Shown here: piece by piece, positions 3,881 through 64,000 of the stretch
How positions within the stretch are numbered: the first letter of the stretch is position 1
Layout: every line of letters begins with the position of its first letter
Assembly: GCA_001600695.1 (NCBI GenBank)
Contig: BCKQ01000007.1
Span: 784,387-848,386 of the forward strand
DNA: 64,000 nt
Direction: 5' to 3'
Source: Ascoidea asiatica JCM 7603
Taxonomy: Eukaryota > Fungi > Ascomycota
The notes under the pieces: model-generated
Told to the model about the DNA's origin: nothing
The model's input: only the letters and a program-made list of their open reading frames with translations
Databases searched by the model: none
Position numbers and translations under genes: made by a program

Positions 3881-3889
3881 TTAGTCCTG

Positions 3890-21359: not shown

Positions 21360-21672
21360 AACTATGAATATTTCATTCTAGAAAATCGCCCGCTCGTTGA
21401 CTTTTACCATTTATAAAGCTGGTTGCACGTAGTTTTATTTTAATATTATTACGTTGGAACATGCAACTTTATTTTACTCTTCTTAAATAATACTCTTTTA
21501 TATAGGTGTAATATTGAATATAAAATTATATATTTATTTGGTGATTCAATGTTAATCGTATGCAACTAAATAAAATATATTTATATATTATATTTATATA
21601 AACCTGAAATTAATAATAATTTGTTGAAAATTTGGTAAAAGTCGATGATGGGATCTATAACAGATAATCTGC
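21360..21672 (+). repeat. 5' LTR (approximate) of the gypsy element
   Basis: Aligns with 27475-27797, e.g. aataaaatatatttatatatta and ggatctataaca(g/t)ataatctg in both. Clearly diverged. Confidence 0.6.
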
Positions 21673-27474: not shown

Positions 27475-27797
27475 CAACTAAAATATTTTCTGCTTCCTAG
27501 TATGTTTTGTGTCTTTGTGTTTTAATTTTTACGATTTATAAAGCCCCCTATTTGTAATTTTATATTAATTGTATTAGGTTAGAAAAGACAGCTTTATTTT
27601 ACTTTGATTACTTATTATTATTATTTGGAAATTTAATTTTGATTATAAAACTATAAATCTAATTATAAATTCAATATGAGTCGTATATAAATGAATAAAA
27701 TATATTTATATATTAGATTCAGATAAAACTCAAAATGATAATAATTATTTGACAATATAGTAAGATTAGCTACTTGGATCTATAACATATAATCTGA
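27475..27797 (+). repeat. 3' LTR (approximate) of the gypsy element
   Basis: Direct repeat of 21360-21672, downstream of purine tract gaaggcggaag at ~27380. The true LTR may start nearer that tract. Confidence 0.6.
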
Positions 27798-36256: not shown

Positions 36257-36513
36257 GGTTGGAAAACAAGGAGGTTTGGGGTTGGTTTACTAGAACTACG
36301 AAGTGTAAGGTGAGTTTTGACTAGGAAACCCTGTCGCAGACTTATCTTGCTGTAGTGGAGTGATGTTCCGGCCTCAACCTTAGGTTCGAAGTAAAAGGTA
36401 AGAGAGCCAGCTCCTTAAATATCATAAAGATACGGGAGGGTAAACCTTGGAAGGATGAAAAACCCAAGAGATTATTTATATTGGGTTCTATATATGGTAT
36501 ATCTACAGATATA
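36257..36513 (-). repeat. 3' LTR of the copia element
   Basis: Aligns with 42580-42679 plus 43018-43176 (gtgtaaggtga...atatatggtatatctacagatata). Confidence 0.85.
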
Positions 36514-37249: not shown

Positions 37250-40200
37250 ATGTAATTCAATATTATCTTTTGAGTCTTTATTAATATCAAAATTGTGAAA
37301 ATTTATAACAAAATTATGAAAATCTAAATCCTCTGTAGTTTGCATATCTCCTAAATTCTTTTTGGTGTTAACATATTTGATTTCAATGAAATCTTTAGAA
37401 ATATTATTCTTTAATTTAAGTAGTTCATTTAAAGTCTACTGATTTTTAATAAAATTATTATTGGTTGCATTTCCTAACCATTTTAAAACACTTTGTGAAT
37501 CAATACGTATAATTATTTTTGTAATTGTATGATTAATTACTTTAAATAAGTTAAAATAGTATATTGAATGTGAAAATATTCTATATAAAGCTAATAATTC
37601 TGCTTCAGAACCGCTAATTGCTTGAATATGTTGTTGTGGTGAACACGTATGCAAAAAATTATTACCAATTAAAATAATACCACCATTAGTACTTTTGTGT
37701 TTAAGATTATAGTTACTATCTGAAAAAATTGTTATTATATTTAAATTATTTGATTGAATTTGTGGAAGGATATTAATTTAATATTTCAAATCTTGAAGTA
37801 ATCTTAGGATATCAGAAGGTTGTGCATTAATTGGAACTTTATGAAGCTTTTTTGTTAATATCATCAAAGGATGTTTTAAATCCATTCCAACTTTTGTTCA
37901 ATATATTAAGTGTCCAAGAATACGTTGTACTGGTTTTACATTAAATTTATAATTATTATTTAAAATTCTTGAAAATTTTGAATGATTAGGTGATCTAGCA
38001 GGTTTTATATCCTGAAAATTGAAATTATTTAAAATTTTAGTTATTTTATTTGTACCTGGTAAATCTATTGATAAATTGTGTTTATTCAATTGATATTCTA
38101 TTCCTAAGAAGAAAAATTTTGATGGATTAATTTGAAATGTAAATTTGAATATTTTCTTTAAATTATTTATAATTTGAATGCATTCAGATTTCTTACCATA
38201 TAGAACCAAATCATCAACATATATAAGTAATTGAGTTGAATGTTTTGAAAATAAAGAAACGTCAAGTCCATTCATCATGAATCCTTCATCTATTAGACAG
38301 GATTTGATTGTGCAATACCAAACTAATGGAGCGAAAGGACTTCCATATAAAAGTTTTTCATCTTGTAGATTGAAATATTAATTTTTATAAATAAATTGTC
38401 TTTTAATACGTAATCATTTTGATTAACCGCTGAAGTAAAATCTCCAATGATTAATTCATTAGATGGTTTCGATAAATATGAAATGAAAAATGTCGTAATA
38501 TTTGTCGTTATAGGACCATAAGAATCATACTCCCTTAGATAATTAGGTAATTTTCGAAAACTATTAAGTACGATTCTTATTTTCTTTTTATTATTCTCGT
38601 TTATAGTTCAAATGAATTTTGTAGATAACATATTTCTTTTTGGAGTTGATTCCCGATTTCTATCATTTGATAAAGGTATAATTGTTCCATAATTCATTAA
38701 ATTATTAATTTCATTCTTTGAGGCGATATGCCATTCTTTTTCTGAATTATTATTGAATCCTTCATCTGCCAAATCATTTTCACTTAAAATATTAAAAATT
38801 GGAATTGATTGCGATGGAATATTGATAACATTATTTAATAAAAAATCTGGTTTCATTTTTTTAAAATTTACTTTTGATTCTGTATAATTTTCTATTACTC
38901 GTTGATTGTCAAAAGTTATTTGTTTTGTAGATTCTACTTCTATAGGAAGGTCTAAATTTTTTGCATTCTTACTTGAATTTGATGTGAAATTATTATCTGT
39001 ATTTAAAACTATTGATTGATTATCTTCATTTATGACATTTAAGTCAGTAGGAATACCTGGGTATTTATGAGAGGGTCATTAATTAAACTTTTCATTGAAT
39101 TGATTGGTGATTCATTAATTGATAGAACTTTTGCCGGGACCGTTAAACTATCAGAAGAATGATATTGAAAATTATTAAAATTGTAATTTATATTAGCTTC
39201 TGTACCTGTTTTACCACTAGGTATTATTTGTTTTGTATTAATTATCAAATCTCTATTGAGTAAGTAAATATTGTACCCTCCTAGGTCAGGATGATGACCT
39301 AGAAAGATTCCAACATTGAAATGAGAAACTTTATTTGTATCATTGGGATTATAGCAATGTACACTTTCTCCAAATGAGGCTGAATATAGATGGTAACTAT
39401 CCATCGATATAGTAAGATCTATTGTAGGTATTCTGATCTTTATATTATCAGTATTGATCGAATTTAAATTATTATTATTTTGAAAAAATATATTTTCATT
39501 CATAGTAGATTTTTCATTAAATTGGTTGGTTTGATTAACTATATGCCTTTTTGGAACATTATCATTACTGAAAGGACTTATATTTGTAAATTTACAGTTG
39601 TACTTAAAGTAAATTCCCAAAAGTATGTTGAATATGCCTCGAATAATAATTTTCTAGAAAGCCGTAAAATTTGGTAGATTCTGTTTTGAATGATAGTATT
39701 AGTTGAATGTTCTAAACCTGGACTCTTCATGAGTTGAAGACCCAAATTTTTAATTTGAAATTCAAAATTTTCATTAAACACTTCAGGTGCTCTATCAGCC
39801 TGTAATTTTATAACTTTAGTATCTGGTGAATTTCTATCAGAAAATTGAATGAATTGAAAAATATTATTCTGAAATTAATTTCTCTTTTTTTTATAATAAA
39901 CTGAAGTAAATCTTGATCTTAGCTCACTAATTATGAAGGCATAATTATTACCGGATAAACTCGGAGCACAAACTTTTCCGACAGCAAAACCTATGCTTGT
40001 ACTCAATCTTGTCACTTCGAATTTGAAATTGTGGTTTTGTGGAAATAACTTTGATTAATTCTACACGTCTCACAAGTTGGGTCTTGACTCTTTATTGACG
40101 GTAGTTCTTGAGGAATTATTCCAGTGATTTTCAGTGTATTAATTTTTGAAGCAGTTAAGTGTCCATATAATATATGTAAATGATTAGCCAATTTTTCTGC

Positions 40201-42407
40201 TTTCATATACTTTAAATATTTAAATTGATTTTTATTTTCTTCTTGTAGAGCTTGTTGAGTAATATTAACTTGCTATACACCAACCATATTTATTTTTATT
40301 TTATTAAATTCAGCAGCGATATATCTACCGCTATATTCATAAATTGTATTATGATATTCTAAAATCATTTTATTATTTGGTTTAAAAGTTGTATTTATAT
40401 TATTATTTGTTAAATCAGTTATTGAAATCAAATTGTTGAAATTTTTATGATATACCATACTTATGGATAAGTGTATGTTTTTGATGAATATTTGAGCCCT
40501 GAATTTGCCATCAAATTTAATATTGCTATTATTACCCAATACTATATTAAATGGTTCACAATATTCAATTGTAGAACATTTTAAAAGTTCTAAATTATAT
40601 TTTGTTGAAATAAATGCTCCAGAACCGAGAAGACAATTTTGCAATAAACGTGACTCTGGATTTTTTGGCTCTTTTCATTTTATTATTCACAGTGTTAACA
40701 TTTATATCAATCGATTTTGATTTATCTGTAGTTTAAAATTTGTTATTATAATTAGAATTTGAAGAATTAGAAAATGAATTAACTTTATTACTTTTGAATG
40801 AAAGCCCTACATTAAATTAAGATATATTGTCTTTTGGCTGGTAATTATCATAATCGTCAAAAGCATCATAACTTTGAGGTGTGCGAACCTTCGCGTTAGT
40901 TGTATTCTTATTATTATTATTATAATTTGAATTTGAATTAGAGTTTTTGTCTATATTATTATTATTATTGTAATTATTATTTTGTTTTCTAAAGTTATTT
41001 CTATTATTATCAGGTTTTTCTTTATACTTATTATTGTAATTTGTTTTATAATTATTATTAATATTGTTATTATTATAATTCTTTCTGAAATTATTATCTT
41101 GACGGAAATTTGTAAATTTTCTTGGTTTGTAATTATTTTATTCAGGTTTAAATAGCTTGTTTTGATCTTTATTATAATTAGAATTTCAATAAGTATTTGC
41201 TGAAGTGAATTTATTATTGTTTTGATTATGATTGAATCTAGGATTAATTTCCTTTTTCCTGGCAGAATTCATTTCAAAAGATGGAACTATATTTGCTTTA
41301 AGATGATTAAAAATATTTTTAATTGCATCAGCAACTTCCTCTGATTGATAATTAGGATCTAATTCAAGTTGTCTTTTGTAAAGTGGACGCCAAGTTTGAT
41401 TTGGAATACAATAAAAATGTGTTCCACTGAATATTTTCGTAAAAATAGTTGATTCAATTTACTGTTGAATAATCAGTTAAGTCATCAGAATCATAATCTG
41501 AGTTGGTATACAACATATGTAGACAATAGCTATAATTTCTTGTTGAAGCTGGAACAGCATAATAATCCTTATACATTTATAAAGGTGTTGATAAATATTT
41601 ATTAAAAACTGCTTCACTACTTAATTGTCTACGACAATAAGTTTTTATCTTTTGAATTTGGTCTTTAGGTGACATTCGTGCAGCAATATTTTTTCAATTG
41701 GTAACGAATGTGAACATCTAATATTCGAGTTGATTATAGTAAATAAATTTTCATTTCTAACATCATCAATTTTATCTGCTTTTAAAATTGAATTTTTATC
41801 TTGTGTCTAAGCTGGAAACTCGAGTGTGAGCGCTTCTCTGAGTGGAATACAACTTAAAGAAATCACTGGTATCTTTAAGGGAATTAGTATGCTTGAATTG
41901 ATTTAAAGCTCTGGTTTGATAATTAATTAATGTAGTAGAGTTTGTGTAATTTTTATGCTCTTTTGGAATTTGCATTAGCAATACTTTCACTAGTTAGATG
42001 ATTGACGTAGTGAGTGGGTAAAGAATAGAATTGAGTTGCATTATTATTTTCAATATTTGAACTATTATTATTTGAATGATCAGTAGCATTAGAAGGATTA
42101 ATTTGATTTTCATTTCTTTCACTAGAGGAATTTGAGTCCATTAAATTAAAATTTGAATTTAATGGTGGAATTTGAAAAATATTTTCAATTTCATTATCAG
42201 ATACATTAATTGACCTAGTAGGAGTATGAGGTTCAGCTGTACCTATCATAGTGCTCGAAATTTTAGTAGGATCAATTGTCCCTGTTGCAGCATCATTAGT
42301 TGAAGCATCGAGTGGCAAATTTATTGCAGTTGCTTCTTCATCCGAAGATAACTGTGCTGGAGTAGATCTAGTGTTTCATGAATTGGCTTTTTTTGGGGAA
42401 CGGGCCA
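37250..42407 (-). pseudogene. copia gag-pol
   Basis: Asn-rich gag; LLGSGA (protease); LHILYGH..CETC (integrase Zn finger); ADRAPEV (DDE core); LIYVDDLV (RT); SDSN, SEAEL and IDSQS (RNase H). Many stops and frameshifts. Confidence 0.9.
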
Positions 42408-42579: not shown

Positions 42580-43176
42580 AGTTGTAAATCAAGAAGCTTT
42601 ACGCTTGGTTTACTACAATCACGAGGTGTAAGGTGAATTTTGACTTGGAAAACCTGTCCTATACTTAACTTGCTGTAGTAGAGCAATTTTGCACAACCTT
42701 TTTTTTGATAAGTGGAGCTATAAGTGGAAGCTAAGTGAGCTCCCCTTGTAAGAGGAAGACACTTAGCAGACCAGTTACGAGATAAGTGGAGCTATAAGCT
42801 CCACTTATTTGTTGAGTGCCGTTACTCTTTCCACTCAAATTCAGGTATGCAGAAAACTAAAATTTATTAATTTTTTTCTCTGTCGCAGATTTAAGGGAAC
42901 ACACGTGAAAATTTTCGTGTTATTTTTTTAAAAATTTAGGACGCCATTTAACTGGAGGCCTAACTGCCAGACCCTTAGGGCTCCAGTTAAAAAAAAAAAA
43001 CTTCTGCAAAATTGTCTTAGTGGAATGATGTTCTGGCATTAACCTTCGACTGCAAGTAAAAGGTAATCGAGCCAGCTGCTTAAATATCATAATGATAGGA
43101 GGGTAAGCCTTGGAACGATGAAAAACTCAAGGGATAACATATATAGGGTTCAATATATGGTATATCTACAGATATA
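42580..43176 (-). repeat. 5' LTR of the copia element, interrupted by a MITE
   Basis: Direct repeat of 36257-36513 once 42680-43017 is removed. Confidence 0.85.
42680..43017. mobile_element. ~340-bp MITE-like insertion
   Basis: Absent from the sister LTR. Terminal inverted repeat caattttgca/tgcaaaattg; flanking TAGT on both sides; internal repeats and hairpins. Confidence 0.75.
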
Positions 43177-46258: not shown

Positions 46259-49200
46259 TGTTATAACATTTAAAGATTATAATAATATGTTATATAAATA
46301 TTTAAGTTACCTAATATATCTAAAGCGAATATATTTTTCTGTAAACAAAGAAAAAGAAAAATACAAAAGAGATAAAGAAACCAAAACAGGAAAAGAAAGC
46401 AATTTATCTTAAATTAGCAAAGCCGAAAGATCTTTCCAAAACAGCAGCAAATTCCAATTAAGCAAACAGTTGCCAAAGTAATTGAGAAAGTGCAAAATTT
46501 ACAGACAAGTTAAAAGATTTCAATGAAGTGAAAATTTTTCATTAAAAAAAAACAAAAAGCTTTTGGATCCCTCGTGCCAACCAGGTGACTACGCAAACAT
46601 GTGATCTGACAAAACCCAAACAATACAAATAATTAGAACGCACACAGAAGAGCCCTGGCGCATGATAAATATTAGGGTTAGCAGGCAGTACAACAAAGAG
46701 ACAAACAGCAAACAAATAATTGAGTGTTAACAGTCTTAAGTAAAACAGAAGTAATTGCATGAGAAAGTAATGGTAAACAGAAGTAAGTAATAGATGAAAT
46801 AGATGAATAAGTTATTAGGGAATGCGATCGTAAAAATATTTAATTTCAATCCAGTTGTAGAATGCTATTTGTAAAACCTTTCTCAATTGTCTGGCGGCAA
46901 TATTATGGCAAAATATATGATTCCGGTTATGTATCTCTAATGATCTACAGCTATTTATTGGAATAAATGGTGTTATATTAATCTATGGATCTTCTTGTTC
47001 CCCAGAACCAAACTGCAACGAGAAAGTGAGACCACATATGGATCTATTTAAACTATCCGAACCGCTGCAGAAAAAGCAAAGCCTTCAAGACTAATTGATA
47101 AAAACTTGAGTCAGACGGAATGAGTTGCATCACAGCAGGAGTTGGCAGATCGCAAAGTTGCTCACAGCTCATAACCGGTATATTCCACCAAACTCCGTAA
47201 TAAGACGGCAATGAACCTGTTTCAAAAGCAGGAAAAGAAAACAATCGAAAAACAACAGGTTAGATTGGAATAGTGCCCAAAGATGCCCTATTAACTAAAA
47301 GAGATAAAACGAAGAGAATCAACGATCAGTAAAGAGCTAACAGTATTTAGTTTAACAAAGCATGAATAACACAAAATACAGAAATTTTCTAAAAATATAA
47401 GGTAGGAACACAAAATAGGAAGTTGGATTACAGCAGTGGTATTATTCTGATAATACGCTGATAGGCAGCAAAGTAAACCAACCCGTGACTTATTCAGTGT
47501 AACAAAGTAAAATAGCTTGGACGAAATCCGACAGAAGGCGACGCTTTTCAATGAGTTGGTAAAATATGGATCTCATTAATGTTTTAGTAAGAATATAAAT
47601 AGTAACGTAAGCTGGCATATGCTCAAGCGTAATAGCTTGGTCCAAATTTTCTTGAGTTGTTTAAAATCTAGGATAAATAAATGGAGGCATTTTCCAATTT
47701 TCATCTTGATATAGGGAAAAACCCGAAGCTTGGTTTTCATTACATATTATTAAAAAATTATGTTAACTTTCAAATTCATGTAGTAAATATTGTTTCCATT
47801 GGCGAATACCAAATGTCATATGAATAACTTTCAGTTCAGCTGAGCAAGTTGAAGTGAAGGTAACGTTGGAATTGCACAGGTTCCAGTTAACAATGTTATC
47901 GTTGAAAAATATACCTATACCTACAAAAGCATTGCTGGTAAGTGATGTATCCGCGTGCGCTACTAATGTTTTTCCATTTAACCTGGTTGGATAAAACAAG
48001 AAGACAAATGAGAATTTAAAATTTCTGAGAATAGGTGTAAGGTTACCGATATTTATAATGGATGAGTTTTTGTTTTTTGAAGTAATTAAAGAAACTGAAT
48101 TGGAGATGTCAAATACAATTAAACAGCCAACTAGTTGAATTCCCGGTGTAGCAGTTAATATTCTTTTAAAGTATAAACTCGTTGAAACCTGTTTTGCTAA
48201 GTTGAAGGACCAACATCAAAAGGCGAAAGTTTCGGAGGATTAACATCAGGTTGTTTGGAACGTAAATTCGTTGTAAAGAATAGAGCAGACAACTTGATAC
48301 TTTTGTCAATAAAAGTTAAATCCATTCATAAAAAGTTTTTAGGATACATATGGAATTTGAGTAAAATCGTTAAGGAAACCTTGTTATAATTATATTAATT
48401 TCATCAATTGAAGCACAAAGGAAAATGTCATCGACATATGAAGAGCCTAAAATATTAAGTAGCCTAATTCTAAATAGGCAGTTATCAGCTGTGAGAAACT
48501 CACCTTCTAATTTGGTAATGACTTGTGTGATATTATCATAAAAATTATGTGGGCACGTATCCGGCCAACTATTAATTTCTTAAGCGTAGCCTTTTGTGAC
48601 TTGAACATTTCATGTAGTAAAACATAACAGTCTTTAGCATTTTTAGCCGCAAGACATGCTTTATTAATATCGAAGGATGCTAAAGACAATTTAATGAGGC
48701 TTCATAGGAAATAACTGAACAAACACTTGCACTATGGCATACCGGAGACTACTTCTCTGATTCAGTTAGAAAATGTTTATGCGAATCTCCATTACCTAAG
48801 GAACCAACGCGAGCTTTAGCAGCAGTTGTTTCTTGTTTTGAGGAGTACGTACAAATCCCTTAGCTAACTACTTTTTATCATAGTATTGTATCAACCAATT
48901 TGAAAGGATCATTTTTATTGAACATGGCAATCTCTTTATAAGTGGGATATTTAATTTCATTAAGGTCGCAACCTCTGGCAGTCATATAACCTTTTGAAAA
49001 ATATATCTGAATTAGTAATTCAGCAAACTGCGTTCACAAATATTTCTGTGCCAGTAATCATATTGGTAGATTGAAAGGATCAAAGCCAAAGACACCATGC
49101 TGTGTTCAAGAGATATGAAGCGAAGTGAAAATGATACAATTTATGAAATTCATTTGATGCAATAAGTGTGTTATGATTCTAAATAAAATCAGCCGTTTGA

Positions 49201-50043
49201 AGATTTTTGTAACCAACAAACATTAGTTGAGTTGATTATGGAAATGTACCAACTATAATAATACAATCTTCATAAACTAGAGGATGCATACGAAAATGAA
49301 ACAGTCTTTGAGACAAGGCTTGAAGTGAAATCAATTTTGAAGAAAGATTTTGAAGTCTATTGTAAATAGGAACAGAAAATGTCGTATCATCTTCAGCAAA
49401 TCTATCAACACTTGGGGGCCGAGAAATGATATTTAATCAGCCTAAATCAGCATTTACTTCAACCAACAACATCTGCAGCTAATTGTTTTGACCCTGATAT
49501 GTTGGTTAACGAACTCCTTCGCGTTCAATGAAGTAGAACTCGGTTCCTTGCTCACACCTTTAAGTACCTATACCTAAAGTTAGCAAATTGAACAATGTCT
49601 GTAAATAGACCTCAATGTTATTTATGTAAGTCTTGTTACTTCACGAAATAAAGACGTTCATCTACTAGTGAAATCATCGTTAATAGCAACACGAAATTTA
49701 TAAGTTCAATACCTGAAAACGAAAGTATCAACATGTATATGCAGAACAAGGTGAACAGATGCTTCCCCTTCCTCCCTATTGCAAGACAATTTTCTAGAAG
49801 GTTTAGCACAAATACATCCTGATTGATTGCAGCGTTGTCAATATTTGTAGGTTTAACCGTTGGGAAGTTTGAATGTAATTTTTGGACTGTACGATAAGCA
49901 AAAGATACATGTGTTAAGTAAGTTTTGGAAAGTAACTGTTCTGAAGAGCAGATAGTATTGTAGTAGTATATACTACATGATTTTCCAATCGTTGACAGTG
50001 TAGAACGGAAATGAGCTGCTTTTTTTTTAGCAATAGGAATATA
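46259..50043 (-). mobile_element. Decayed Ty1/copia element, 3' part (IN, RT, RH, 3' region); continues at 63616
   Basis: LHIHVDT and DDFTSR (integrase); KARVG, FDINKA and SYVDDIF (RT); AHADTS and TCSAEL (RNase H). Left boundary uncertain. Confidence 0.8.
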
Positions 50044-50481
50044 TGTTGTTGGTTCAGAGCGGGATTTTTACTTGAGCGTGTTTCGCTCAGATAAAAGAAA
50101 AAACTCTTTTCTGAGCGTGGGATCACGCTCAGGTAAAAAAATCGGTTGTTTCTGAGCGAGACACGCTCCGATAAAAAGAATTGCGTTTATCTCGGCGTGA
50201 TTTTTAATGCTCCTGTAGCTAGGTTGTCATTGCTCAAAAATGTTTCAAATGTGGCAAGCAGGTTCTTTGAATCAAGGGCTACTCAGGAAAGTTTTTGTTT
50301 TTTGAAAATATGGAGAATTGACAGAGCAAGTAGCTATCAAAAAACACTGTCTCCGCACATTATTGGCGCAATATCCGGACGGAGGCTCTAGGCTCGGGGT
50401 GCTCCGTGCACTATGCGCCACTGACTTTTTCTCTGTTGCGCACAAAACCACAAACCTTATACATGACCTCTTAATCGCCAA
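50044..50481 (+). repeat. Left TIR (end A)
   Basis: Reverse complement of 63181-63615, roughly 75-80% identical by eye. Contains a TGAGCG-N-CGCTCA array. Confidence 0.85.
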
Positions 50482-51999
50482 GTGTTTGTCACACGAAGCA
50501 AAATCAAAGTTCAGGTGAGTCTGAGAATTAAAAGCGCTATTCTACTGCTTTCACAGAAGTTAAAACATCCTAACTGTAAATATAACCAAGTCTCAGTGTT
50601 GCTAGTACCATATACTATAAAACTTTATATATTTCCATCCTTATCAAGCTGAGAACAGCTACTAAACCTCAATTTTCCAGATAAACCGTTATCAGCTATG
50701 ATATAGTTACAAATGTTAGAATAATTTAAAAATATTTGTAAACACTCAGTGATCTTTAACAAATTTTAGGTACCTTATTAGCATCATGTTACATTTAATA
50801 ACATTTGAAGAGACTTCATGCAAATAAGTGTTTTTATGACCTAAAAGAGATACTCAAAAACAAACCTAGATAAAAAATATAACCCTCATGAACGGTTTAA
50901 TTTATTATCAAATGAATCAAGGAAAAATACCAATAATAAAATACTAAAAAAAAAGGTGAATAAAGAATAAATCAGAATTATCTCACATACTTAGATAACT
51001 GAACACAATAAACCAATATGCAAAACGCAATAATTAAAAAAAGTCTTACTTATTTAAATTCTCTTTACACAAAAACTTATGTAGAGAACATAGGTGAAAT
51101 TAATTTGCCAGAGATAATGCACAATCAAATTAGGAACAAAAACATAAAAACAAATATAGAGGCAATTGATTCCCATTGGGCACAACCACAATTTAAATAA
51201 CATCAAGATTCGATTGAACGTTGACATAAAAAAACTAAACGTTCAGTGCCATATACAAAACCACGGGCTGATGACATTATTTTAGAGAACAGTATCAGCA
51301 ACACGTTTCTCAATTAAATACAACCATTTTATGTTTTAATTGATCAACTGAAAAATAAATCCAGTGATAGTTTGCAACAAAATATTACCCTTGTCTTCTC
51401 CAGAAATGGAATGTTTACATAGAAGACTGGCAACCGTGATACCACATGACAATTGTGGAATATGTTATTTTAATTTTCTATTTAAAGGTATGGCAATTTA
51501 GATTTATTACCAACTAAGAAACATTTGATAAAAGTTTAACTTCATATATATAGAGCCGCTTTGCTTACTTATACAGTTGGTCTAACACAAGAATGCCTGA
51601 AAGAACAACATTGAAAAAAAAGAAGTTATCACTGAAAATATCAATCAAAATAACTTATAATTGAAATTTTATAATTGCGCAAGAAGGAATATTCTTTTCA
51701 AATATTTCCGGCTCTAAACTCTAAACCGATATAATGATTTGGTTATAAGATAATACAATATACCATCGAAGTTAAACAAACCCAGACCATTTAAAGTTAA
51801 TTAGGTATAAATAGAATTTTAGTTTCTATCAACCCCAATTTAATAGAATCTTTTTTTGTTTTTTGAGCAAGCATCCCTGATTTCAAATAAAATTAATTGA
51901 GCTAACCATAGAAGAGGCAAACATTAGTAGTGATTTTACAGAAGTACTTAGTAAACACTAATGCCTTTAAGCCTGAAAAAACAAGAAGATAACTTTTCT

Positions 52000-53500
52000 A
52001 TCCTGTTCTGGTACTTGTTGAATACTTTCTGGAAATGGTTTACTGCAGATGAAAACCTATATTAAATCATCAGACTCTGATACTTAATTTTCTGCCTAAA
52101 ACTACTGTTCAATAGTCTTCTTTTTTGATACTATGGTGCGTGATTATCAACCCCAGAAGTAAGTGCCTTATTTCCAGTACAACTTAACTAGACAGTTGAG
52201 CTGCCCTTCGCAAGAGCTAGTGAGAGCCGATAGTATTAATTTATCTCACCAATAAGATCGCAATATGTTTTGGATAATCGTTTGGAAAACTTGTTATGCT
52301 GTTAAGCTGTTATCTGCTTTCTGCTGTATGGTGCAAGTTTTTGGAGCACCTTCCATAATGATTTTCTATATGGTAAGCACCGTTTGATGTTAACCCAAAT
52401 TCTCTTCCTACAAATTTTCTACTGAACTATAATAACCACTACCTTTATGGCACCTGCTGCGACCTTCTTGCTTATCCATGTACGATAGTACTTGGTTTTC
52501 AAACTAGATACAGGCCCTACAAAATTAGTGTTCCACCAATTAATAATAGCAGCAAGCCAAATTTTATCGTGCTTGCCGTAGTGTAAGGGCAGAGGGTGAC
52601 GGTCAGTGATCATTTTATAGTTGTTCTGTAAAACGCTGATTGTATTGGTGTTCTGTGGTGGTGACCACGCATTTGAGTAGCTGGGGATTTAGTAAGTGAA
52701 TTCTCAAATATTGGTTAACACCAAGTTTAATTGAAGGGAGTTTGTGGTGCAGCTGGCATAGAGTTATTTTGGGTCAATTAATTTGGTTTTCAATTTTGTA
52801 ATACTAGACTTCGTTTTATGCAGTAAATCAATATTTATTTGAAAGCGAAATATGTGAAGATACTTGAACTGCTTTACTTTATTTCGATTTTTTATTCTGT
52901 ATTATCCCAGTTTAATTTCCTGTAACTAATATTTTATTATTCTGCTCGCTCTTTTTGTGAAATCATTAATGTCCCTTATTATTTTGTTGATTAATGGCAT
53001 AACAACCTTTGTAGCTTCTTGAAGCTATCCTTAATTTTTGAAAGCAAACCTCAGATCATGAAGAAGAAAATTTGTAGTTTGCTCCAAATTGTTTTTGGTT
53101 CGGTTATAGTTCGAAGCATTCACGAGAAATTAGACATATTTCCTTTTCAAAAGGTTCTACAACTGTTTTACAGTGATTGAGTCTTCCCCATAAGGTTTTA
53201 AAGGCTTAAGGTAATTGTACTTTGCTATTTGACAAACTTTATGGACCATCCAAAAAATCAAGGGATAACCAGCTGAGATATCAGACAGTACAGTGATACT
53301 TCTCTATGCCAATTAAAACAATTACCTACGGAGTGTGAGAACAACTGAAGTCAGATGTTCCTATGAGTGGTTCTCTCATAAGAATCGTTTTAATTTTTTA
53401 ACCGTTAAAGCAAACGCTAGTTTATAAAGGTAACATTACGATTCTGGAAAAGTTGCTTTTCACATTATCAGTAGTGTGTTTATTATGGAAAACTAATGAT
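52000..53500 (-). pseudogene. Possible gypsy RNase H/integrase relic nested in the large element
   Basis: WNTNFVGPV (cf. W.IDF.GP) and LAPY remnants. No counterpart seen in copy 1. Confidence 0.4.
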
Positions 53501-53844
53501 AGAACTTCCAAGCGCAAAAGAAACACGTCTAACATTTACTCAGTAAGATAGTTGTTTACCGGAAGGCTGTACTAACAAACATTGTTAACTTAATATATTT
53601 CATTGAAAGCGAGAAGTCGCCATTTAAAGCACTAAGCTGTTCCTTGCCTGTCTTAAGAGATGGACAAAAGTTGTGCACAATGCTGCTTTTCTTATACAAA
53701 GCATCCAAAATCACATATAAGTTTTCAAATTTTTAGTGGCCGAGTAAAGGGCAGTAAATATGTTAGCTTCAAAAGAAAAAAAAGTGAGTATTCCTAGAAA
53801 CAGTATATTCACGAAACGTTTACTAAAGTAATAACTACCCGTTT

Positions 53845-54610
53845 ACCAGACACCGAACCAAAAGGTATCTAAGCATAATTTTCTTGAACTTGGTTTCTCC
53901 TTTAACACTCTGGATCCTTTAAGCCATCCAAAAAAAATTAAGTAGTCGCTAACGGTAGCTCGACTGGACGCTTCTATTAACCAGTAGCTTTCTGCTTTAC
54001 AATATATCGTCAGCAGCATGTTGGATGCAAACCGTTCAAACATATACCTTTTAATTTATTTGTTAACAAAAAAGTTGAGTGCTGGTGCTTTCCTTGAATT
54101 ACCGTTGTGAATGCTAAATAATGAAATTTAGCCAAATGGCAATTGTCGACGAACAAAATATAGCGTATTGACTTTCAGGTGGAAACCTACAATCCAGATC
54201 CATAGATGTCAACCTCCGAGCTATATCCTGAGGCATGCCATAAGCACTTTCGTTATACTTAGCACTGGATTAGAAGCTTTGCTGTACCGCTTTTGATTAA
54301 TGGAGTGGAAAAGGAATAATAAAAAGCACAGAAACCGGGAGTGCTTGATAAGAAATGTTAACTTTTTTCAACTGATTGAGGGAATGGGAACTGTTTTGCA
54401 CGTAATCATCCAAATAAATGCTATATTCGATTTTTAAATAAAGAGTACCGCCTCTCGCCAACAGTTTAGGCAGGGCCCAAGATATTAATCACGTATTTTT
54501 CGGGGTTGGGGTTTAGTTGGTTGGATAACAGTTGGAGAGATAGTGTCGTATTTTTAGATAAACTGGTTGCAGTAATCCAAGTAAGGACCATCTGTAAATA
54601 AATTAAGCAT
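53845..54610 (-). pseudogene. Unidentified second gene of the Ginger-like element
   Basis: Homologous to 3093-3880 with synonymous-type differences; starts MLNLFTDGPYLDYCNQFI. Confidence 0.45.
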
Positions 54611-55929
54611 TATGTTTGGCTATTATTTTTTATTATCCCGAATTGGTAGAATCAGCTTGGTTCGATTGTCTTTAAAAAATTAACTGGCTAACCATATGAG
54701 CAGTAACCTTAATGGCTTTTATTTGTCCACATGTTATAAAAATATAGCTAAATGGTAAATAATAATTCAAGTAGCTTTACTAAGCATAGTTAATACTCAA
54801 AATTGTTTTGTTTCTTTTATCAACAACAACCGCTACCCTGTGGGAGGCAAATTTCTTTGTACCAGGTTTGTAGTTCCGACAATTAATCTGATCCTCGCAG
54901 CTATGATTACTGCATAGTAGGGAGCACGCGACCTTTTTTTTTCTGCATCCACATCTTTCTGTACTCAGTAAAGCACAATCATATGAATTAATTATTTTGG
55001 AATTCCTAAGCTCTTCTTGGGGAACAACATCGTTTGTTAATTGCAATTCAGTCAAATGTAAAATATGTTTACTAACACTGCGTAAACTGACACTGTTGTA
55101 ACCAAATCTGCCGATGGAGGAAAACCAACATCGGCGTCTGCTCTAATATTCTCCAATTCAGAGTACATAAAAGCATTTTCTAAAATTCCAGTTTTACATG
55201 CAACTTTATAAAACTTTTTTGTTTCATCTTGGGAACTCTCCATGATCGTTATAACATAACCAAGGCAAGATTTGTCAGATATTCTCACAGCAATATCTTG
55301 TTTATTAAATGTCACTTTTACCTTGTCATATAACTTAATGGTTTTCCTGGGAGTTCGATTATTACGCTACTTATCTGTTATCATCATGTACCTGTTATTC
55401 GTCGCCATAATTTTGGAATAGTCGGAAGAACTTTGTGAGCAATACCTTTCTGAGTTTTTTGGAGAATCAGCTGCACCGTATGGACCAACTGTGCTTTGTT
55501 TTTCTTCTTTTCCAGAATTCGGAAATATTTTCTGAGCATGGAGATATAGAGCTTGTGAAGCTGTGACACCAATAGCACGACTGAAATTGTTATTTATCGA
55601 ATACACAGCATCATCTAGGAAGCTAGACCAATTTCTACTTTCATAGATATTCATTAGTCTAGCTAGCTCCACTTAGAATACGTCGTTACCGTTTTGCACA
55701 AGTCCGTTCGCCTTTGGATTTCTTGGTCTGATTCGAATTCTTTTGAGGTTCCTACTTTGCATAATTGTAGAATTGTTTTACTTATAAATTCTGCCTGTTA
55801 TCCATTTGGAGCATTGATGATGTGTTAACAGTATTGAAAAACATACACATAACCTTTTTCACCGAAGACGCACGCTTATTGAATAGAGGCGAAGACCAAC
55901 TAAATTTCCTAAAATGATCCCTGAAATGT

Positions 55930-56590
55930 GAGTGAATCTGCATCGCACCGTGTTTTGTCTTTCCAGCACCATAAATATCTTCACAGCACCGTGTTTTTAT
56001 CTTCGGGAGCACCGTGTTTCTACACAGCACCCCCTGATATATCTCACGACGGGTAACCTATTAATATAGAAAATTTTTACTTGTTTAATAGTCAAATTAG
56101 TATGTAAAAAAGAACTTTCCGAAAATTAACATTTTTGGGAAATTTGCTTAAGTATGGGTCGGACACAAAAGTAGACAATTAGTGTCCGAGTGCCCGTAAT
56201 AACGCGTTCAAGAAGCGGTCCACCATAGTTAAGACCTGAGTATTTTTGGCCGGGCCGACGATTTGCCGATCAATAAAAAAAAAGCCCATGGTAATCCATA
56301 GGGAAAAAAAATTACAAAGAAAGGGTACGACATGAGCGCGACACAAATTAAGTGTCACGTTTGGTGGAGAAGTCATGTGCTCTGTCACCTGATGCAAGTC
56401 AGGTGAGATTTACAAGATCCTGTACCATGGTGTTTGAGATGCGTGTGACCACCCCCCCCCCCGGCAGCCGAAAAACCCAAAGAAAAACCTCTAATTTTGG
56501 GGCGGGGTAAGTCGTGGCAGAACTTTTTGAGTTACCCGGCTTCAGCGCGCATTTTTGCGCGCTTCTGCGCAGTTCCTTGAAGCTGGCTTA
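55930..56590 (+). repeat. MULE left TIR
   Basis: Reverse complement of 58593-59251 with only a handful of differences. Confidence 0.95.
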
Positions 56591-56691
56591 ACGAATTATT
56601 TGCATTAAAGGGGTTACATTTAACGGATATAAAGATATGCAAAAAAATAACAAATGATTTATTGAGCATATGCAAGGAAGTATATCTCAAA

Positions 56692-58530
56692 ATGGAAGAA
56701 TATATTGAAGAAGTTATTCCAGAAATTGATAAGACTGTCTTGTCTAAAAAAGAAATAAAGACATAGATGATAAACTATTTTAAAAAATCATCTTTAGGAT
56801 TACATATAATCAGAAGCGATAGCACTTAAATAATTTATCACTGCAAATACGGAGATCAGTACAGAGGTACAGGTCCAGGTTCTTCAAGAATTTCAAACTC
56901 AACACAAGTTAAATGCCCATTCTCAATCCCATTCCCACATTATATGAAATCCAATCAAAGGCAGTTAACCAAGATATGCAGTATACATAAATTCCACAGT
57001 CCTTTGGTCCATCCTGAAATACAGCCAGTTTTAAGAAGAAGAACCCCAGAAGTTAAGCAATTTCTTGTTTCAATGTTTAATCAAAATACAGTAAAGGCCC
57101 GAATTATTATCCCATTTGTAATAGAACAATTCCACCTTACACTCATTAATAAAGATATAGTCAACGAGCTTTATAATTATCGTCAACTGAATAAAAATCC
57201 ATTATACTCAAATGCTGCTGAAACTATCAATTACTTCAAAAATGCTGGTTATAAGGTGGTTACTGCTTTGACAGAAGATAACAAACTTCAACTTTGTTGT
57301 TTTCTCTCAGTTTCTGCAGAACAGTTTTTAGCAAACAACAAACTTGAGGTGTTGTATATGGATACAACTTACAGGGTTAATAAGTTCAATCTACATTTAT
57401 GTAATTTTGTTACAGAAAATATGAATGGCTCAACCATACCATTAGCTAGTTGCTTGATGAGTAGAGAGACATATCTTAATTATACCCAAGTATTACAAAT
57501 GTTTGTCTCATTTATTGAGCTGATTGTTGGTGAAGACTATTCTATTCCATTGATTCTCACTGATAGAGATAAAAGTATAAGAAAAGCTATTGAAGAGGTT
57601 ATTCCTGACACACATCACAGATACTGTTTGTTTCACAATAAGGCTAACATTAAAGCAAATTGTTATAAACATTTTGTTACGGTTGACTGTGTGTCTGAGT
57701 GGATTGAGTTTTTACAAATGTTTGATCTGTTTTGGACTACAGTGAGTAAACCTGATACTTTGTAAATTAAAGCCAAAATAAAAGATTTTTTGGAAAAATA
57801 TGCAAATGACAGTAAAGTCATTGACTATTTAGAATCTTTCATCTATGTTGATGAAGATCATTTTGCTATATCATGTTCACCAAACGATTTATTTATTCCG
57901 TCGTATTCATCTTCAAGAATTGAAAGTTTTCATGCTGCGTTGAAACAGTATTTGTCGGGAGCCACAATTTCGTTATTGGAAATGGCCGTGAGCTACAATA
58001 CATTTATTGAAGAGTTATTCCACCAAGCTGATGTAAAAAATGAGAGTCATTCCAAAAGGTATGTTTTGCAGAAAACGTTTAGAGACTTTTGTGGCGCCAT
58101 TATAAATATGTTCTCATATCAGTGTCCATGTATTCTTCTAAAAGAATATCAAGCAGCGGAAAGAATGTATAACTCCGATGATGAAACATATGTTTGCTCT
58201 AGCTGCAGAACAACATATTGTTTAAAAACACCATGTGGACATCAAATGCTTCAGCTACTTTGCATTTCTGAAAAGCTAAAACCGGATATGATCAACCCTT
58301 TTTATCGTAAAGTGTTGGTAGTTAATACGGACGAAGATGCAGATATTGTTGCTACATTGGCTTCGATAAAAGATATTGATTTTGTTCCTCGTCGCCAAAG
58401 TGTTGCTCCACAAAAAGACGTTCGTATTCCTACCGTGGCAGAGAGAGTAGTAGAGGAAAACCTTTATGCTACAGAATCGGAGCCCCCTTCTGATGTGTCT
58501 GAGCTCATGGACACTATCGAATTTAGTTAG
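56692..58530 (+). pseudogene. MULE transposase (FAR1-like N-terminus, DDE, SWIM) with three in-frame stops
   Basis: One frame throughout: HCKYG..KCPF, LYMDTTYRVNKFNL, ILTDRD..HRYCLFH, SSRIESFH, YVCSSC..PCGH. Stops at 56764, 56827 and 57763. Confidence 0.92.
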
Positions 58531-58592
58531 ATTTTCTTAGTATATACTCTATTTAGTAAATTAAAATATCCTTTGTTTTTTAGATAATTATA

Positions 58593-59251
58593 TAAGCCAG
58601 CTTCGAGGAACTGCGCAGAAGCGCGCAAAAATGCGCGCTGAAGCCGGGTAACTCAAAAAGTTCTGCCACGACTCACCCCGCCCCAAAATTAGAGGTTTTT
58701 CTTTGGGTTTTTCGGCTGCCGGGGGGGGGGGGTCACATGCATCTCAAACACCATGGTACAGGATCTTGTAAATCTCACCTGACTTGCATCAGGTGACAGA
58801 GCACATGACTTCTCCACCAAACGTGACACTTAATTTGTGTCGCGCTCATGTCGTACCCTTTCTTTGTAATTTTTTTTCCCTATGGATTACCATGGGCTTT
58901 TTTTTTATTGATCGGCAAATCGTCGGCCCGGCCAAAAATACTCAGGTCTTAACTATGGTGGACCGCTTCTTTAACGCGTTATTAAGGGCACTCGGACACT
59001 AATTGTCTACTTTTGTGTACGACCCATACTTAAGCAAATTTCCCAAAAATGTTAATTTTCGGAAAGTTCTTTTTTACATACTAATTTGACTATTAAACAA
59101 GTAAAAATTTTCTATATTAATAGGTTACCCGTCGTGAGATATATCAGGGGGTGCTGTGTAGAAACACGGTGCTCCCGAAGATAAAAACACGGTGCTGTGA
59201 AGATATTTATGGTGCTGGAAAGACAAAACACGGTGCGATGCAGATTCACTC
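58593..59251 (-). repeat. MULE right TIR
   Basis: Inverted copy of 55930-56590. Confidence 0.95.
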
Positions 59252-61879
59252 TGAAATGTATAATCCACTTATATTCCTTTATATCATCGTCTTTGTTCTC
59301 ATTATCTTCCTCTGTTTTGGAATTTCAAGTTCATCTAAGTTTTCTAAAATATACGTCTCTTCTTCGAGCTTAATATCTGCAACCAACTTGTTTGGGTCAA
59401 CTTATAACTTATACTGTTTAATTGACCTGGTGCGTCTCATATCTTTTAAATCAACCTGTACTCTTTCAAGACTTTGGGAAGACTTAATAAAATTTACCTC
59501 TCCAACTGGCTTAATAATTGACTGTTTTAACCATATCAAGCAACGAAGGTTTATCGCATTTAAAAATCTATTTGGAACATTATAAAATATTTCTTTAAGC
59601 TCCCTTCCCACAAACTTGGATGTCTTCTTACACCTTCTTTTTGTCTGATGGAACCAAAGGGTTACCTCTACTATTTCGTCTATATGAAGTACAAGTATTT
59701 TTTTGGAATAAAATATTTGGTTCCCAATACGGGAGTAGTGTTTATTTATTCTACCTACCTTTTCTACCAATGAATTATCAGGAGTGTTGTTAAAGAAATC
59801 TTCCATAGTGGCCAATTCTTGTTCAGAAAGGCTCAATTTTTATTTAACCTCAAAGATCTTCTTATGGATAGCTTGTAAGAATTCCACCGGTTTAACCATT
59901 TCGTTATTAAAAACAAGATCAAACATTTGTTGGGTAAATGTGGTTTTATGTTGAATACCGAAACTTTCAACATCTTCCTTCTCGAACAGATCATACAAGA
60001 AACCACTAAACTTTCGATCCATGGAGTGCAAAACTAAACTATTACTTTTTAGTTTGCGATTGCTTATTTTTAATTTGACTCGGATAGTTTTTCCAGTAAA
60101 AGTAAACACGGCTACGGTCATAAATTTCGGTAATTAGATCTTTGGAAGCAACTGATATTTTTGCCTTCTTATAAGTTATTTCAACGCCGTCACTGCTACT
60201 CTCCTCAGTGAAACTTTGTTTTCCATCGGAATTGAGAGTAGCAGAATTACCGCTAATGGATTGTATTTTCTGAGAGGGTAAGTTGAAACCATTATTATTG
60301 AATCATCTATTATCTTGAGCTATAACATGGCTAGGAAATTGTTTGGTCAGTTCATTTCTGACTGAAAGGCTCTCCAGCACTAAAGGTTCGTGTCCAAATT
60401 TTTGAGAATCATTGAGTTCTTTTTTCTTACACAGTTCTTGACTAGAATAAGTGTCTGTATCCAACTCCCTTTTTGAAATATCTGCTTTAGTGGAAATGAA
60501 GTCATAGTCTATTGGAGAGCACTTTTTATTTTTTGGACGTATGATTTGCGTCTCAATGAACTTATAGAAGGACTCATGTACAGTGTCAATGGACTGTTGT
60601 GATATTTGGAAGCAAGTTTTAAAAACATAAGATCCAGTAATTGAACTTTTTGTTTGAAACAGTTGAACCACAGCGAAGTATCAGGCTGCAAAATAACCAC
60701 AAGAATAACTGTTCTTTTGACTGTCAACGTCCATAAATATTTGTTTCCTACTAATTGAATCAGACGGGCACCTGAGCAAGAATGAAAGCATCATTTTAAG
60801 ATCTTTTTGCAATTCGTCTAAAATTTTTGACCCAGACAACGAGTCTAAAATATAACAAGTAGCATCCATGAAACTGGCTTTAATTTGGAAAAACACTGTG
60901 AGCCAGTGGTTGTGGTACAAATAGGGCATAACCAAAAACAATTGCTGCAGATCATCTGTACCAAATTCTGCAGACCACTTGGAGGATTTTAGAAAATTCA
61001 GCGTAAATTCATTTAACACTCCATTGGATGAAAATAAGGGAATCATATTGGGATTCAAATACAAAACAAAACTATTGCAGAAGTACAAAGCTTGCAGCAA
61101 ATAGTCATCAGCGCCTTCTGACCAATATATATCTGGAACTGAACTTAAAAGATATTTAATTGACAGGTGAACTAAACTATCATCAAGCCAACGTTTTCAA
61201 ATTATGGTAGACAAGCTTTCCTAATAAGGGTTGCCACATGATGATCCGTTAGACTCAATCAAAGTGGTTTCCTGCATTTTAAAATCCAAAATTGTATTAT
61301 GCTGAAGAGAGCAACGCAGTAATGGAAAGAAGTAGATTTTATTTTTGAACACAAACACAATTATTGTAAAAACCTTCTTTACCAACAGTTGTAATCTTAT
61401 TAATTTATTTTCTTAAAATACAAACTAGATTTTTCTTTTGAAGAATAACTTGTAGAAATATTTTTAGCGAACATTGTTATAACAGTTTTTTTGAGTTTCT
61501 GCAAAACGATCGTTAGCTTTGAAAATATTATTTATTGAAAGTTGTATAGAAAATGCGAATATTAATATTATTAAAATTTTTAATGAATTTGCTTATTATT
61601 GTGTAATAATATTATTATATTTCGAATCAGTTTTTTTATGGTTCTGTACTGCTTTTATTTCATATGAAATTTGTTTTGCTTTTTTTAATATTAAAATTAA
61701 TGTTGTTAGTTATAGTTAATATTAAAAATTTAAGTAAGCTTACAAGTATATTAATTGAAGCTTGGATTATTATTTTTATACTTATTGTAAATATTGTCTA
61801 GTCGGACTTTTTGTACTATTATATTTATACTTATTTTTGTATAGTATAACTGATATTATTATTTTTCTTTTATTTAATA

Positions 61880-62003
61880 TTACTATTTTTGAAAAGTATA
61901 ATTGTTATGATTATTATTGTTATTATTGTTATTATTGTTATTATTGTTATTACTACTATTATTATTATTTTTGTTATTTCTTGAATTTATATTTAAAGTG
62001 TTC

Positions 62004-62034
<31 letters not shown>

Positions 62035-62060
62035 GATTCTTATTATTAACTGTTTTATTA
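61880..62060. repeat. (TAT/TGT)n low-complexity tract (poly-Asn on the minus strand)
   Basis: Long imperfect trinucleotide run; ORF 61883-62125 is mostly Asn. Confidence 0.8.
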
Positions 62061-62299
62061 CAATTATTAATTTTTCGTTTTCCTAAATTTAATTTACAAA
62101 CTTTGTTTCCTGCGTTTGTTGTCAACGTACCACCTAAAGTCTAAAAAATAGATTTAGGATATGAGTAAATTGAAAAATTTGATATGTGTGAGGAGAAGCA
62201 AAAATAAAAAAAAAGTAAAAAGAAAGAAAGTTTTTTTTCTTTTGTTGTAGGCTACCGTGTGGAGAATAATTTCCATCAGGTTAGGAGGTCGTCACGCAG

Positions 62300-62372
62300 T
62301 CCCTTTCACGTGACTAATATGCGGTTAACCTACACATTTCCTTTTTTAAACACAATAACTCCCGTATAAAAG
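62300..62372 (+). promoter_or_regulatory. Candidate promoter: TCACGTGA E-box plus TATAAAAG
   Basis: TCACGTGA at ~62306 and TATAAAAG at ~62365, about 50 bp upstream of the ATG at 62418. Motif match only. Confidence 0.35.
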
Positions 62373-62417
62373 AGGTAGATTGATATTTTAATCTGCTTTT
62401 CAGAATTTATTTATTTT

Positions 62418-63102
62418 ATGTTTATTAAGATGGAACCAATTAAAGAAGTGGTGTTACTTTTGTCGTTAGCTCAAGCAAAAGTTAAGGTATTTGGGTCACG
62501 TGCCTTTGCAAAGTATGTTTATTATCCTGATTTTAAAAGTGTTTGTAAAAGAACGCCAATTCGAGTCAGCGCTGGGAAGAATGATTTTAGGGCTCTCGTT
62601 GTGAAAAAGTTGGTCAGGTGAAAGCCGTATCTTGTCGCCAAGGTTATGGAAGATCTTTGAATTTTGGCTGAGGGTGAAGCTACATCTAAAGGTATTTTTT
62701 TTGCACCGCTGTGCCGACAAGCCGCTAACCGCTTCCGAGATAGCCGAAATAAAATATTCAAAAGAAGAACAAATTAAGATTGCTAAAAAAAAAAGGGAAT
62801 TAAAAAATAAAATATTAACAAAAGATGAGGAGCTAAACATCATTAAAAAAAATACTAAACTCTCTGTTTCTAACGCTAGTTATAACAGGTTAAAAAAAAA
62901 ACTTGATTGTAAAGCCAAGTTAAAGGTAGCCGTTGCCAACAACAAAGCAAAAGAGGTTAAGGCTTTCCGGAGTAAGATTAGAGAGATGCACCGGAAGGAT
63001 TTTAAAAAGGTTTCCTTGAAAAATCTTATTATTCCGGATGAGGACGGATATGAAACGACATGTGGAAGTGGTGACGATTGCGAATCCGATGCAGAAAATT
63101 AG
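62418..63102 (+). pseudogene. Unidentified Lys-rich, coiled-coil-like protein with acidic tail (accessory ORF of the large element)
   Basis: Adjacent ORFs 62418-62621 and 62632-63102 probably form one disrupted gene that ends just before the right TIR. Confidence 0.45.
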
Positions 63103-63180
63103 TCTTCTTCTTTTGTTATGTAGATAAATCAATTCTGTTAGCTATAAAATAAATAAGGCTTTTGTTGTTTTTCCAAGAAA

Positions 63181-63615
63181 TTGGCAATTAACAGGTCAGG
63201 TGTAAGGTTTGTGGTTTTGTGCGCAACAAAAAAAAGTCGGTGGCGCACAGTGCGCGGAGCGCCCTAAGCCTAGAGCCTCCAGGAGGATATTGGGCGAATA
63301 ATGCGCGGAGACAGTGTTTTTTGATAGGTACCTGCTCTATCAATTCTCCATATTTTCGAGAAAAAAAAGTTTCCCGAGAAGCCATTGATGCAAAGAACCT
63401 GCTTGCCAAATTTGAAACGTTTTTGTGCTGTGAAAAGCTAGCTACAGGTTCTTCAAAACTGACGCTCAGATAAACGGAATTGCTTTTGTATGAGCGTGTC
63501 TCCCTCAAAAACAAACGATTTTTTTAGCTGAGCGTGATCCCTCGCTCAGAAAAGAAAAATATCTTTTACTTGAGAGATACACCGTCAATATAACTCTCGC
63601 TCAATTACATCGACA
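63181..63615 (-). repeat. Right TIR (end B)
   Basis: Inverted relative to 50044-50481. Its inner flank differs from that of both end-A copies. Confidence 0.85.
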
Positions 63616-64000
63616 TATATTCTTCAGTAATTTGAAGACATACTTCATTATTATCATAAAGTAATTTAGCTCCCTGCAAGAAAATTGATGGTGTTGATAT
63701 AAATTTAGTGGATTTGGTAAATATAATTCAGTAATTTTCACTGCTAAACAGCAATGTCTCTGTTGATTGTACTAGACGGTGCTGCCTAAAAAACGTAGAT
63801 GTTCGAATAGGGTACAAGAATTTTGTTAACGTCGTATGAATAAAGAAAATGTAATGACTTAACAAGTGTTGAATCAGCAGCACTTTCAATAATAATCTGT
63901 ATTAATTTTGGTTTTAATATTCATTTATTTAACAAATTCGAATATACAAATTTTACTTACTACAATTTATGTATTCCAGAACTAACCGGTGCTAATCCAG
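63616..64000 (-). pseudogene. Upstream part of the interrupted copia pol (protease C-terminal region)
   Basis: KFISTPSIFLQGAKLLYDNNEVCLQITEE joins in frame through the TSD to YIPIAKKK... left of 50044. Confidence 0.65.

Follow-up and report, generated by a model that had tools for sequence, protein, structure and literature searches.

A broken 10.2-kb transposon, probably of Ginger2 type, with an Ulp1-like protease domain in Ascoidea asiatica

Background

Ginger2 transposons, as described by Bao, Kapitonov and Jurka (2010; PMC2836005), have TGTNR ends, target duplications of 4 bp (or 5 bp), an RTATAY target, and H2C2 and DDE motifs with no GPY/F or YPYY motif. Table 2 of that paper gives autonomous families of 2.8-6.7 kb with terminal inverted repeats (TIRs) of 45-297 bp. 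Ginger1 elements target CCGG or CCGT and have GPY/F and YPYY motifs, and in the extracts of the same paper Ulp1 and OTU domains are listed only for Ginger1, at the C-terminus of the transposase. Ulp1 domains are also carried by Mutator-like elements (MULEs) and other transposons. Elements of the Ginger type have been reported to be widespread in fungi, judged by the rve domain (PMC5751038), and KRBA2 and SCAND3 have been placed in Ginger2 (PMC3575427). Statements made here about the literature refer to extracts of the cited papers. Against this background we describe a locus of the fungus Ascoidea asiatica JCM 7603 (assembly GCA_001600695.1, contig BCKQ01000007.1, positions 784,387 to 848,386), analysed as a window of 64,000 nucleotides whose numbering is used below. 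The segment at 50044-63615 is probably a broken copy of a 10.2-kb, TIR-bounded cut-and-paste transposon of Ginger2 type, whose integrase-type transposase likely carried an Ulp1-like protease domain at its front.

Ends, target site and size

The element is bounded by a left TIR of 438 bp at 50044-50481 (plus strand, tip TGTTG) and a right TIR of 435 bp at 63181-63615 (minus strand, ending CGACA, the reverse complement of TGTCG). Self-comparison aligned the two at 82.5% identity over 445 columns, seven of them flank columns (E 6e-124), with the outer 40 bases less alike than the interior. A 4-bp TATA lies on each side, at 50040-50043 and 63616-63619, in this one copy with both ends, and the chance of such a 4-base flank match from base composition is 0.0064. 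The reconstructed target, ATATAT, fits RTATAY, which occurs 148 times in the 64,000 bases (0.0023 per position). Near the tips, GAGCG/CGCTC motifs number 7 in the first 125 bp of the left TIR and 5 in the first 155 of the right, with 28 in the whole window.

These features bear out the preliminary description of the locus in its diverged inverted repeats of about 435 bp, its TGTTG and CGACA tips and its flanking TATA, and they uphold the reading of a single Ginger-like DNA transposon, bounded by TIRs and flanked by a 4-bp duplication. The size of 13.6 kb given there holds for the whole span (13,572 bases), but 3,330 of these bases are a nested MULE together with one copy of the MULE's own target duplication, leaving 10,242 bp for the element proper. 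MULE-like outer ends were rejected because the tips and duplication are unlike those of the nested MULE, and a long terminal repeat (LTR) element because the terminal repeats are inverted.

Several minor observations concern the same ends. The seven bases beyond each tip are mutual reverse complements (GAATATA and TATATTC), the target lying within a 10-bp palindrome. Both TIRs contain frames of 84-111 codons, and on the minus strand of 50044-50480 the protein-level similarity of the left TIR to that of a second copy (below) beat 299 of 300 permutations, which is probably chance among 18 tests. No tRNA gene was found, no B-box was matched in the TIRs, and the single Rfam match (E 0.26) fell far under its threshold.

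The integrase

The integrase lies on the minus strand and is split by the MULE. Its N-terminal part (59251-60133) holds a partial zinc finger and the first catalytic Asp, in RVQVDLKDM at 59464; the second half of the core (55370-55929) is interrupted by frameshifts and a stop; and the C-terminal part of the transposase (54783-55366) has no database match. In this last part there are what we take to be an SH3-like stretch and a cysteine-rich tail, labelled after Ginger2/KRBA2-like proteins. The core continues with YKWIIHF, which runs up to the MULE, HFRDHFRKF at 55928, the second Asp in LQMDN at 55811, and RPRNPKANGLVQNGN at 55729. Ginger2 cores published in Data S3 of PMC10045372 show R-x-Q-(I/V)-DL-x-DM, a strand ending DH(F/L)xKF, LQSDN, and RPRHPQSQG-x-x-ER-x-N. 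By eye, the closest rows in that data set are Ginger2-1_BF, Ginger2-1_CaRog and the fungal Ginger2-1_RIr, the rows that also contain H-x-R-D-H-F, a motif in none of the Ginger1 and Polinton rows compared (PMC10045372).

Both catalytic Asp residues are present. Some 35 codons beyond the second Asp, where Glu is expected, this copy has Q and the second copy has K. The retroviral-type DDE integrase of the preliminary description, a Gypsy-integrase-like core probably of Ginger2 type, is supported by four motifs and both Asp, but not at the third catalytic position, which reads Q and not E. Between the first Asp and YKW lie about 60 codons, some 45 more than in the published Ginger2 rows, which have roughly 12-18 residues there (PMC10045372), and the stretch is common to the second copy. 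The zinc finger retains one His and CxxW here and CxxC in the second copy, with the second His not seen, and a single GPY tripeptide at about 55486 is not retained in the second copy. Comparison of the two copies reveals protein-level constraint in the integrase core on its minus strand (reached by 0 of 300 permutations), and constraint in the N- and C-terminal parts is borderline (p 0.05-0.06).

Of 134 frames of at least 50 codons in 47000-64000 and 1-8100, 120 were scanned against Pfam, the other 14, within the MULE or its repeats, being excluded; six matched at E<=0.05, and only the MULE and C48 matches are credible. NCBIfam (8 frames) and PHROGs (13 frames) returned weak, unrelated matches. 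No match was obtained for the N-terminal part of the integrase among longer proteins, for a 145-residue integrase frame among 1.84 billion representatives, for the second half of the core among PDB sequences, or in a search of metagenome and viral contig loci and of metagenome contigs with the TIR pattern. The frame of the nested MULE also went unmatched among longer proteins despite a Pfam E of 7e-22, which indicates that this protein search is insensitive here. Since the library and homology searches were blank, the Ginger2 assignment rests on motifs compared by eye.

The Ulp1-like domain and its junction with the integrase

Upstream of the integrase, a minus-strand frame with isolated stops (60045-61592) encodes an Ulp1/C48-like protease and a linker. 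The protease domain, at 60684-61196, matches PF02902 (Peptidase_C48) with E 0.0035, and yeast Ulp1 (1EUV) was one of two PDB matches at E<=10; in the alignments to 1EUV and PF02902 the positions of the His-Asp-Cys triad and the oxyanion Gln are conserved. A structure model from the single sequence reached a pLDDT (model confidence) of 43, fold searches with this low-confidence model returned nothing informative, and the frame found no match in the protein search.

The protease frame (61592 to 60045) and the integrase frame (60133-59282) share 88 bases, which leaves no spacer between them. The simpler reading is then a single fused gene that a frameshift has disrupted, and the arrangement of the frames makes such a fusion likely. 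Farther upstream on the same strand, an Asn-rich low-complexity stretch at 61593-62290 may be the N-terminus of the protease-integrase gene.

A second copy and the extent of the family

A second, truncated copy of the family lies in the opposite orientation (plus strand) at approximately 1206-7986, with an integrase, the shared downstream arm and one TIR. It is colinear with the first copy over 6.8 kb in four blocks of 63, 60, 70 and 76% identity, and it has no MULE. The alignment ends at 50044/7986 or, under another scoring that takes in the shared flank ATA, at 50041/7989; the tip reads ACAACA followed by TATC, giving a TGTTG terminus and a 3/4 match of TATC to TATA. Upstream of about 1202 there is no detectable homology to the element (score 45 against a mean of 43 in 30 shuffles). 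The copy breaks off before the protease and is therefore uninformative about it. At the break, window positions 1-1200 hold the end of a copia RNase H-like frame (1-303) and about 900 further bases; possibly a copia insertion split the copy.

Further copies are represented by diverged contigs from two runs, X1 and X3. This DNA may have come from those runs, which are not independent evidence for the locus itself; they comprise about 20 million letters of contigs, in keeping with a small eukaryotic genome. In these runs the integrase is covered by 2 to 4 contigs with other letters, the protease region at 60796-60878, and the downstream arm at 52620-53782, with further joints at 51171, 51412 and 54191. 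Diverged contigs also cover 61857-63524, into the right TIR, and the equal depth figure suggests that this stretch is linked from 61857 to the right TIR in the sister contigs. Among the contig pieces listed, none reaches the TIR tip of another copy. Runs X4 and X5, from two other organisms, gave short matches only.

The element had been assigned to a large family. It does belong to a family, as the second copy and the diverged contigs show, but that family looks small, amounting to a handful of diverged contigs. Both copies read, the 13.6-kb locus and 1206-7986, are dead, the former because of its stops, frameshifts, MULE insertion and changed catalytic position. An unusual genetic code was rejected, since in-frame stops of all three kinds occur and one of them is a sense codon in the second copy. 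With both copies dead and the family small, nothing is directly assayable from this locus.

The lysine-rich frame, the 4-kb arm and the number of genes

A divergent, plus-strand region at 62379-63102 comprises a lysine-rich frame of 165 codons (62605-63099) and an overlapping, preceding frame of 80 codons. Lysine accounts for 31 of the 165 codons, the tail is acidic, and sister contigs cover the frame. A frame as long arose in 0 of 500 shuffles of the region, which had been picked after viewing. The structure model is helical at low confidence (pLDDT 55) and no family was found. The frame is probably a second gene of the element.

The arm downstream of the integrase (50482-54715, about 4.2 kb) is mostly shared with the second copy and a sister contig, with local alignments between copies of 60-70% and scores far above shuffles. 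It contains no frame of notable length (shuffles gave one as long in 287 and 492 of 500 cases), and no protein-level constraint was detected in five segments on both strands. Two genes are therefore probable, or three should the protease be encoded apart from the integrase, and none was seen in the arm. This count does not support the "at least 3 genes" proposed for the element, given that the protease and integrase frames overlap without a spacer, one further frame is probable and the arm lacks a coding signal. The broader point, that the element holds more than an integrase, is upheld. Profile scans gave no match to a protein-primed polymerase (pPolB), a packaging ATPase or a capsid, in a setting where the same decay hides the neighbouring copia reverse transcriptase (RT) from Pfam.

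The nested MULE and the copia host

The nested MULE occupies 55930-59250 (plus strand; 3,321 bp; PF10551, E 7e-22). Its TIRs of 670 bp, 98.4% alike, make up 40% of its length, and its target duplication is 9 bp, CTGAAATGT. The transposase frame (56830-58527) is broken by a single TAA at 57763. Empty sites are found in the diverged contigs, one of which passes from 55920 straight to 59251 and so leaves out 3,330 bases, with 9 letters that fit either side, and another of which joins 55890 to 59253. The MULE is young, and the 98.4% likeness of its TIRs against 82% for the outer TIRs argues that it inserted later than the outer element.

The transposon lies in a decayed copia pol, at 47766-50039 on the minus strand, in which CxxC..K (49477), KARV (48817), YVDD (48438) and STxxAE (47852) occur in order. 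We take these motifs to mark the copia zinc finger, RT and RNase H. The flank was identified through motifs, being undetected by Pfam, and tblastn with other copia frames of the window did not reach either flank. The preliminary description had cited a continuous copia frame, left when the segment and one TATA are removed, as a sign of single insertion. Excision does yield an open frame of 171 codons, 36 before the junction and 135 after, but a second frame in the right flank is likewise open for 50 codons, so that the test is weak alone and supports a single insertion only weakly. On the joined frame and resemblance by eye, the right flank would belong to the same copia. No empty copia site was seen among the listed contig joints (X1, X3). 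Elsewhere in the right flank, a 77-bp stretch at 63900-63975 matches 16092-16167 in inverted orientation at 78%, and two contigs depart from the window sequence at 63975, where another repeat may begin.

Comparison with described elements

The preliminary description held that the element fits neither Gingers nor Polintons neatly. The comparison shows this view to be too strong, since Ginger2 is indicated by the termini, by the target and by the motifs of the integrase alike. Like Ginger2/Tdd elements, it combines TGTNR ends, a 4-bp duplication, an RTATAY target, the absence of a conserved GPY/F and a low copy number with integrase motifs and a spacing of about D35E that agree by eye. It differs in size (10.2 kb against 2.8-6.7 kb), in TIR length (435-438 bp against 45-297 bp), in its upstream Ulp1-like domain, in the roughly 45 extra codons past the first Asp and in its probable second, divergent gene. 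Taken as a Ginger2, which it most likely is, the element stands apart by these five features; it would extend a known class and would not found a new one.

With Ginger1 the element shares TGTNR ends, a 4-bp duplication and an Ulp1 domain linked to an integrase-type transposase; however, Ginger1 has a CCGG/CCGT target and a C-terminal Ulp1 or OTU domain, whereas here the target is the AT-rich TATA, the Ulp1 domain is upstream and the core is Ginger2-like. IS3EU and GingerRoot elements are also integrase-related, reach 12.9 kb and can carry extra sequence (PMC6839031, PMC10045372), but they have 6-bp duplications, mostly TA ends and a WHxDxxDKL core, with no HHCC. The preliminary description, which called Ginger transposons normally smaller, was right on size: at 10,242 bp the element exceeds those in the tables of Bao et al. 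As to the suggestion that it may be undescribed, a Ginger2 with an upstream Ulp1 or of this size was not found in the literature extracts, a search that did not cover Repbase and Dfam (at least 30 Ginger2 proteins), where it may be catalogued. An Ulp1 domain is already known in Ginger1, at the C-terminus.

Alternative explanations

A probable Ginger2-type transposon with a frontal Ulp1-like domain has to be weighed against the weaknesses of its evidence. The 4-bp duplication rests on one copy, and the second copy shows TATC at its single tip. The four integrase patterns speak for the reading, each having a single match in a six-frame translation of the window, in the expected sequence and always on the minus strand, and in 150 shuffles three of them occurred 0 times and LQxDN in 23; this control overstates the case, the patterns having been defined after the sequence was viewed. 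The integrase went unseen in Pfam, NCBIfam, PHROGs, PDB and two large protein searches, and a codon-periodicity test gave no signal even in the integrase, so that the test had no power. The Ulp1-like domain scores 17.6 bits, below the curated Pfam cut-off of 20.7, and the match to 1EUV has an E of 1.1. Fusion of protease and integrase requires a single frameshift around 60045-60133, unconfirmed in other copies, and among the contig pieces listed none spans the two together.

If protease, integrase and lysine-rich frame were separate genes, and the arm had once held more, the element would be a truly multi-gene Ginger2, a small Polinton-like cargo element with no polymerase or capsid. The different frames of protease and integrase, an ATG at 60121 in the integrase frame and the retention of the 4-kb arm in at least two other copies suit this explanation, as does the tendency of Polintons to accumulate frames in either orientation (PMC6431247). 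We regard it as unlikely, however, in view of the 88-base overlap in a copy where single frameshifts are common elsewhere, and of an arm that has neither a long frame nor protein-level constraint. It is quite improbable that an ordinary Ginger2 of about 6-7 kb received an inserted element or a captured host fragment (the Ulp1 gene, the lysine-rich frame), the extras being no part of the transposition machinery. The region is dense in nested elements, Ulp1 domains are carried by MULEs and other transposons (PMC2836005), and no single sister contig among those listed links protease to integrase; but the protease region is not enclosed by a further pair of TIRs or by a duplication of its own, its frame continues into that of the integrase in the same orientation, and diverged contigs cover the protease region too and run from 61857 to the right TIR.

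Polintons (Mavericks) resemble the element in their integrase, cysteine protease, long TIRs and frames in both orientations (PMC6431247, PMC6839031), the first three being the Polinton core (PMC6431247), and decay that hides even the neighbouring copia RT from Pfam means that genes may have been lost in the arm. A Polinton or virus-like remnant whose polymerase and capsid genes were lost or decayed is nevertheless very improbable. The duplication is 4 bp and not the 6 bp of Polintons, and the AG ends, length of 15-25 kb, pPolB, ATPase, frequent capsids and adenovirus-like protease of that group were not seen here. Furthermore, the integrase has Ginger2-like motifs and a partial zinc finger, which Polinton integrases lack, and the protease matches C48/Ulp1.

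Proposed mechanism and significance

For the Ginger2-type transposon that we favor, the GAGCG/CGCTC motifs repeated close to each tip would be the binding sites of the transposase. Following the chemistry of the Ginger2 family, the enzyme would then cleave at the TGT...ACA ends and insert them into ATATAT with a 4-base stagger. Repair of the stagger would leave the TATA on both sides, the ends and the duplication being observed. From the frame overlap, protease and integrase would be one protein of roughly 1,400 residues. The protease may free host proteins of repair or silencing, or the transposase itself, from SUMO or a related tag, and Bao et al. propose a comparable protease role for Ginger1 (PMC2836005). 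The lysine-rich product could be a basic, helical helper protein. The order of events would be copia, then Ginger2 into copia, and much later the MULE into Ginger2.

The recurrence of Ulp1/OTU proteases in unrelated transposons suggests that removal of SUMO or ubiquitin aids transposition (PMC2836005). If the reading is correct, a Ginger2 with Ulp1 at the end opposite to that in Ginger1 adds a further independent capture and doubles the size range known for Ginger2. Ginger-like elements have been put forward as possible donors of the integrase and protease of Polintons (PMC6431247); Ginger2 integrases group near that of Polinton, and a Ginger2 with both would be of interest for Polinton origin. 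We offer tentatively, as doubtful, the further idea of an undescribed 10-kb Ginger2 lineage, in which a SUMO-type protease joined at the front independently of Ginger1 and a divergent helper gene was added, a living model of the proposed Polinton integrase and protease donor.

Other features of the window

The window has a G+C content of 32% and abounds in decayed transposons. Direct repeats at 36258-36513 and 42581-43176, 80-85% alike, surround a decayed copia (frames 37436-41268, minus strand) and are probably its LTRs. Another pair, at 21402-21671 and 27527-27796 (74% alike, 6.1 kb apart), flanks retrotransposon-like frames and probably represents the LTRs of another element. An inverted repeat of about 125-155 bp at 13511-13666 and 17093-17248, 75% alike and 3.5 kb apart, possibly marks another old TIR element.

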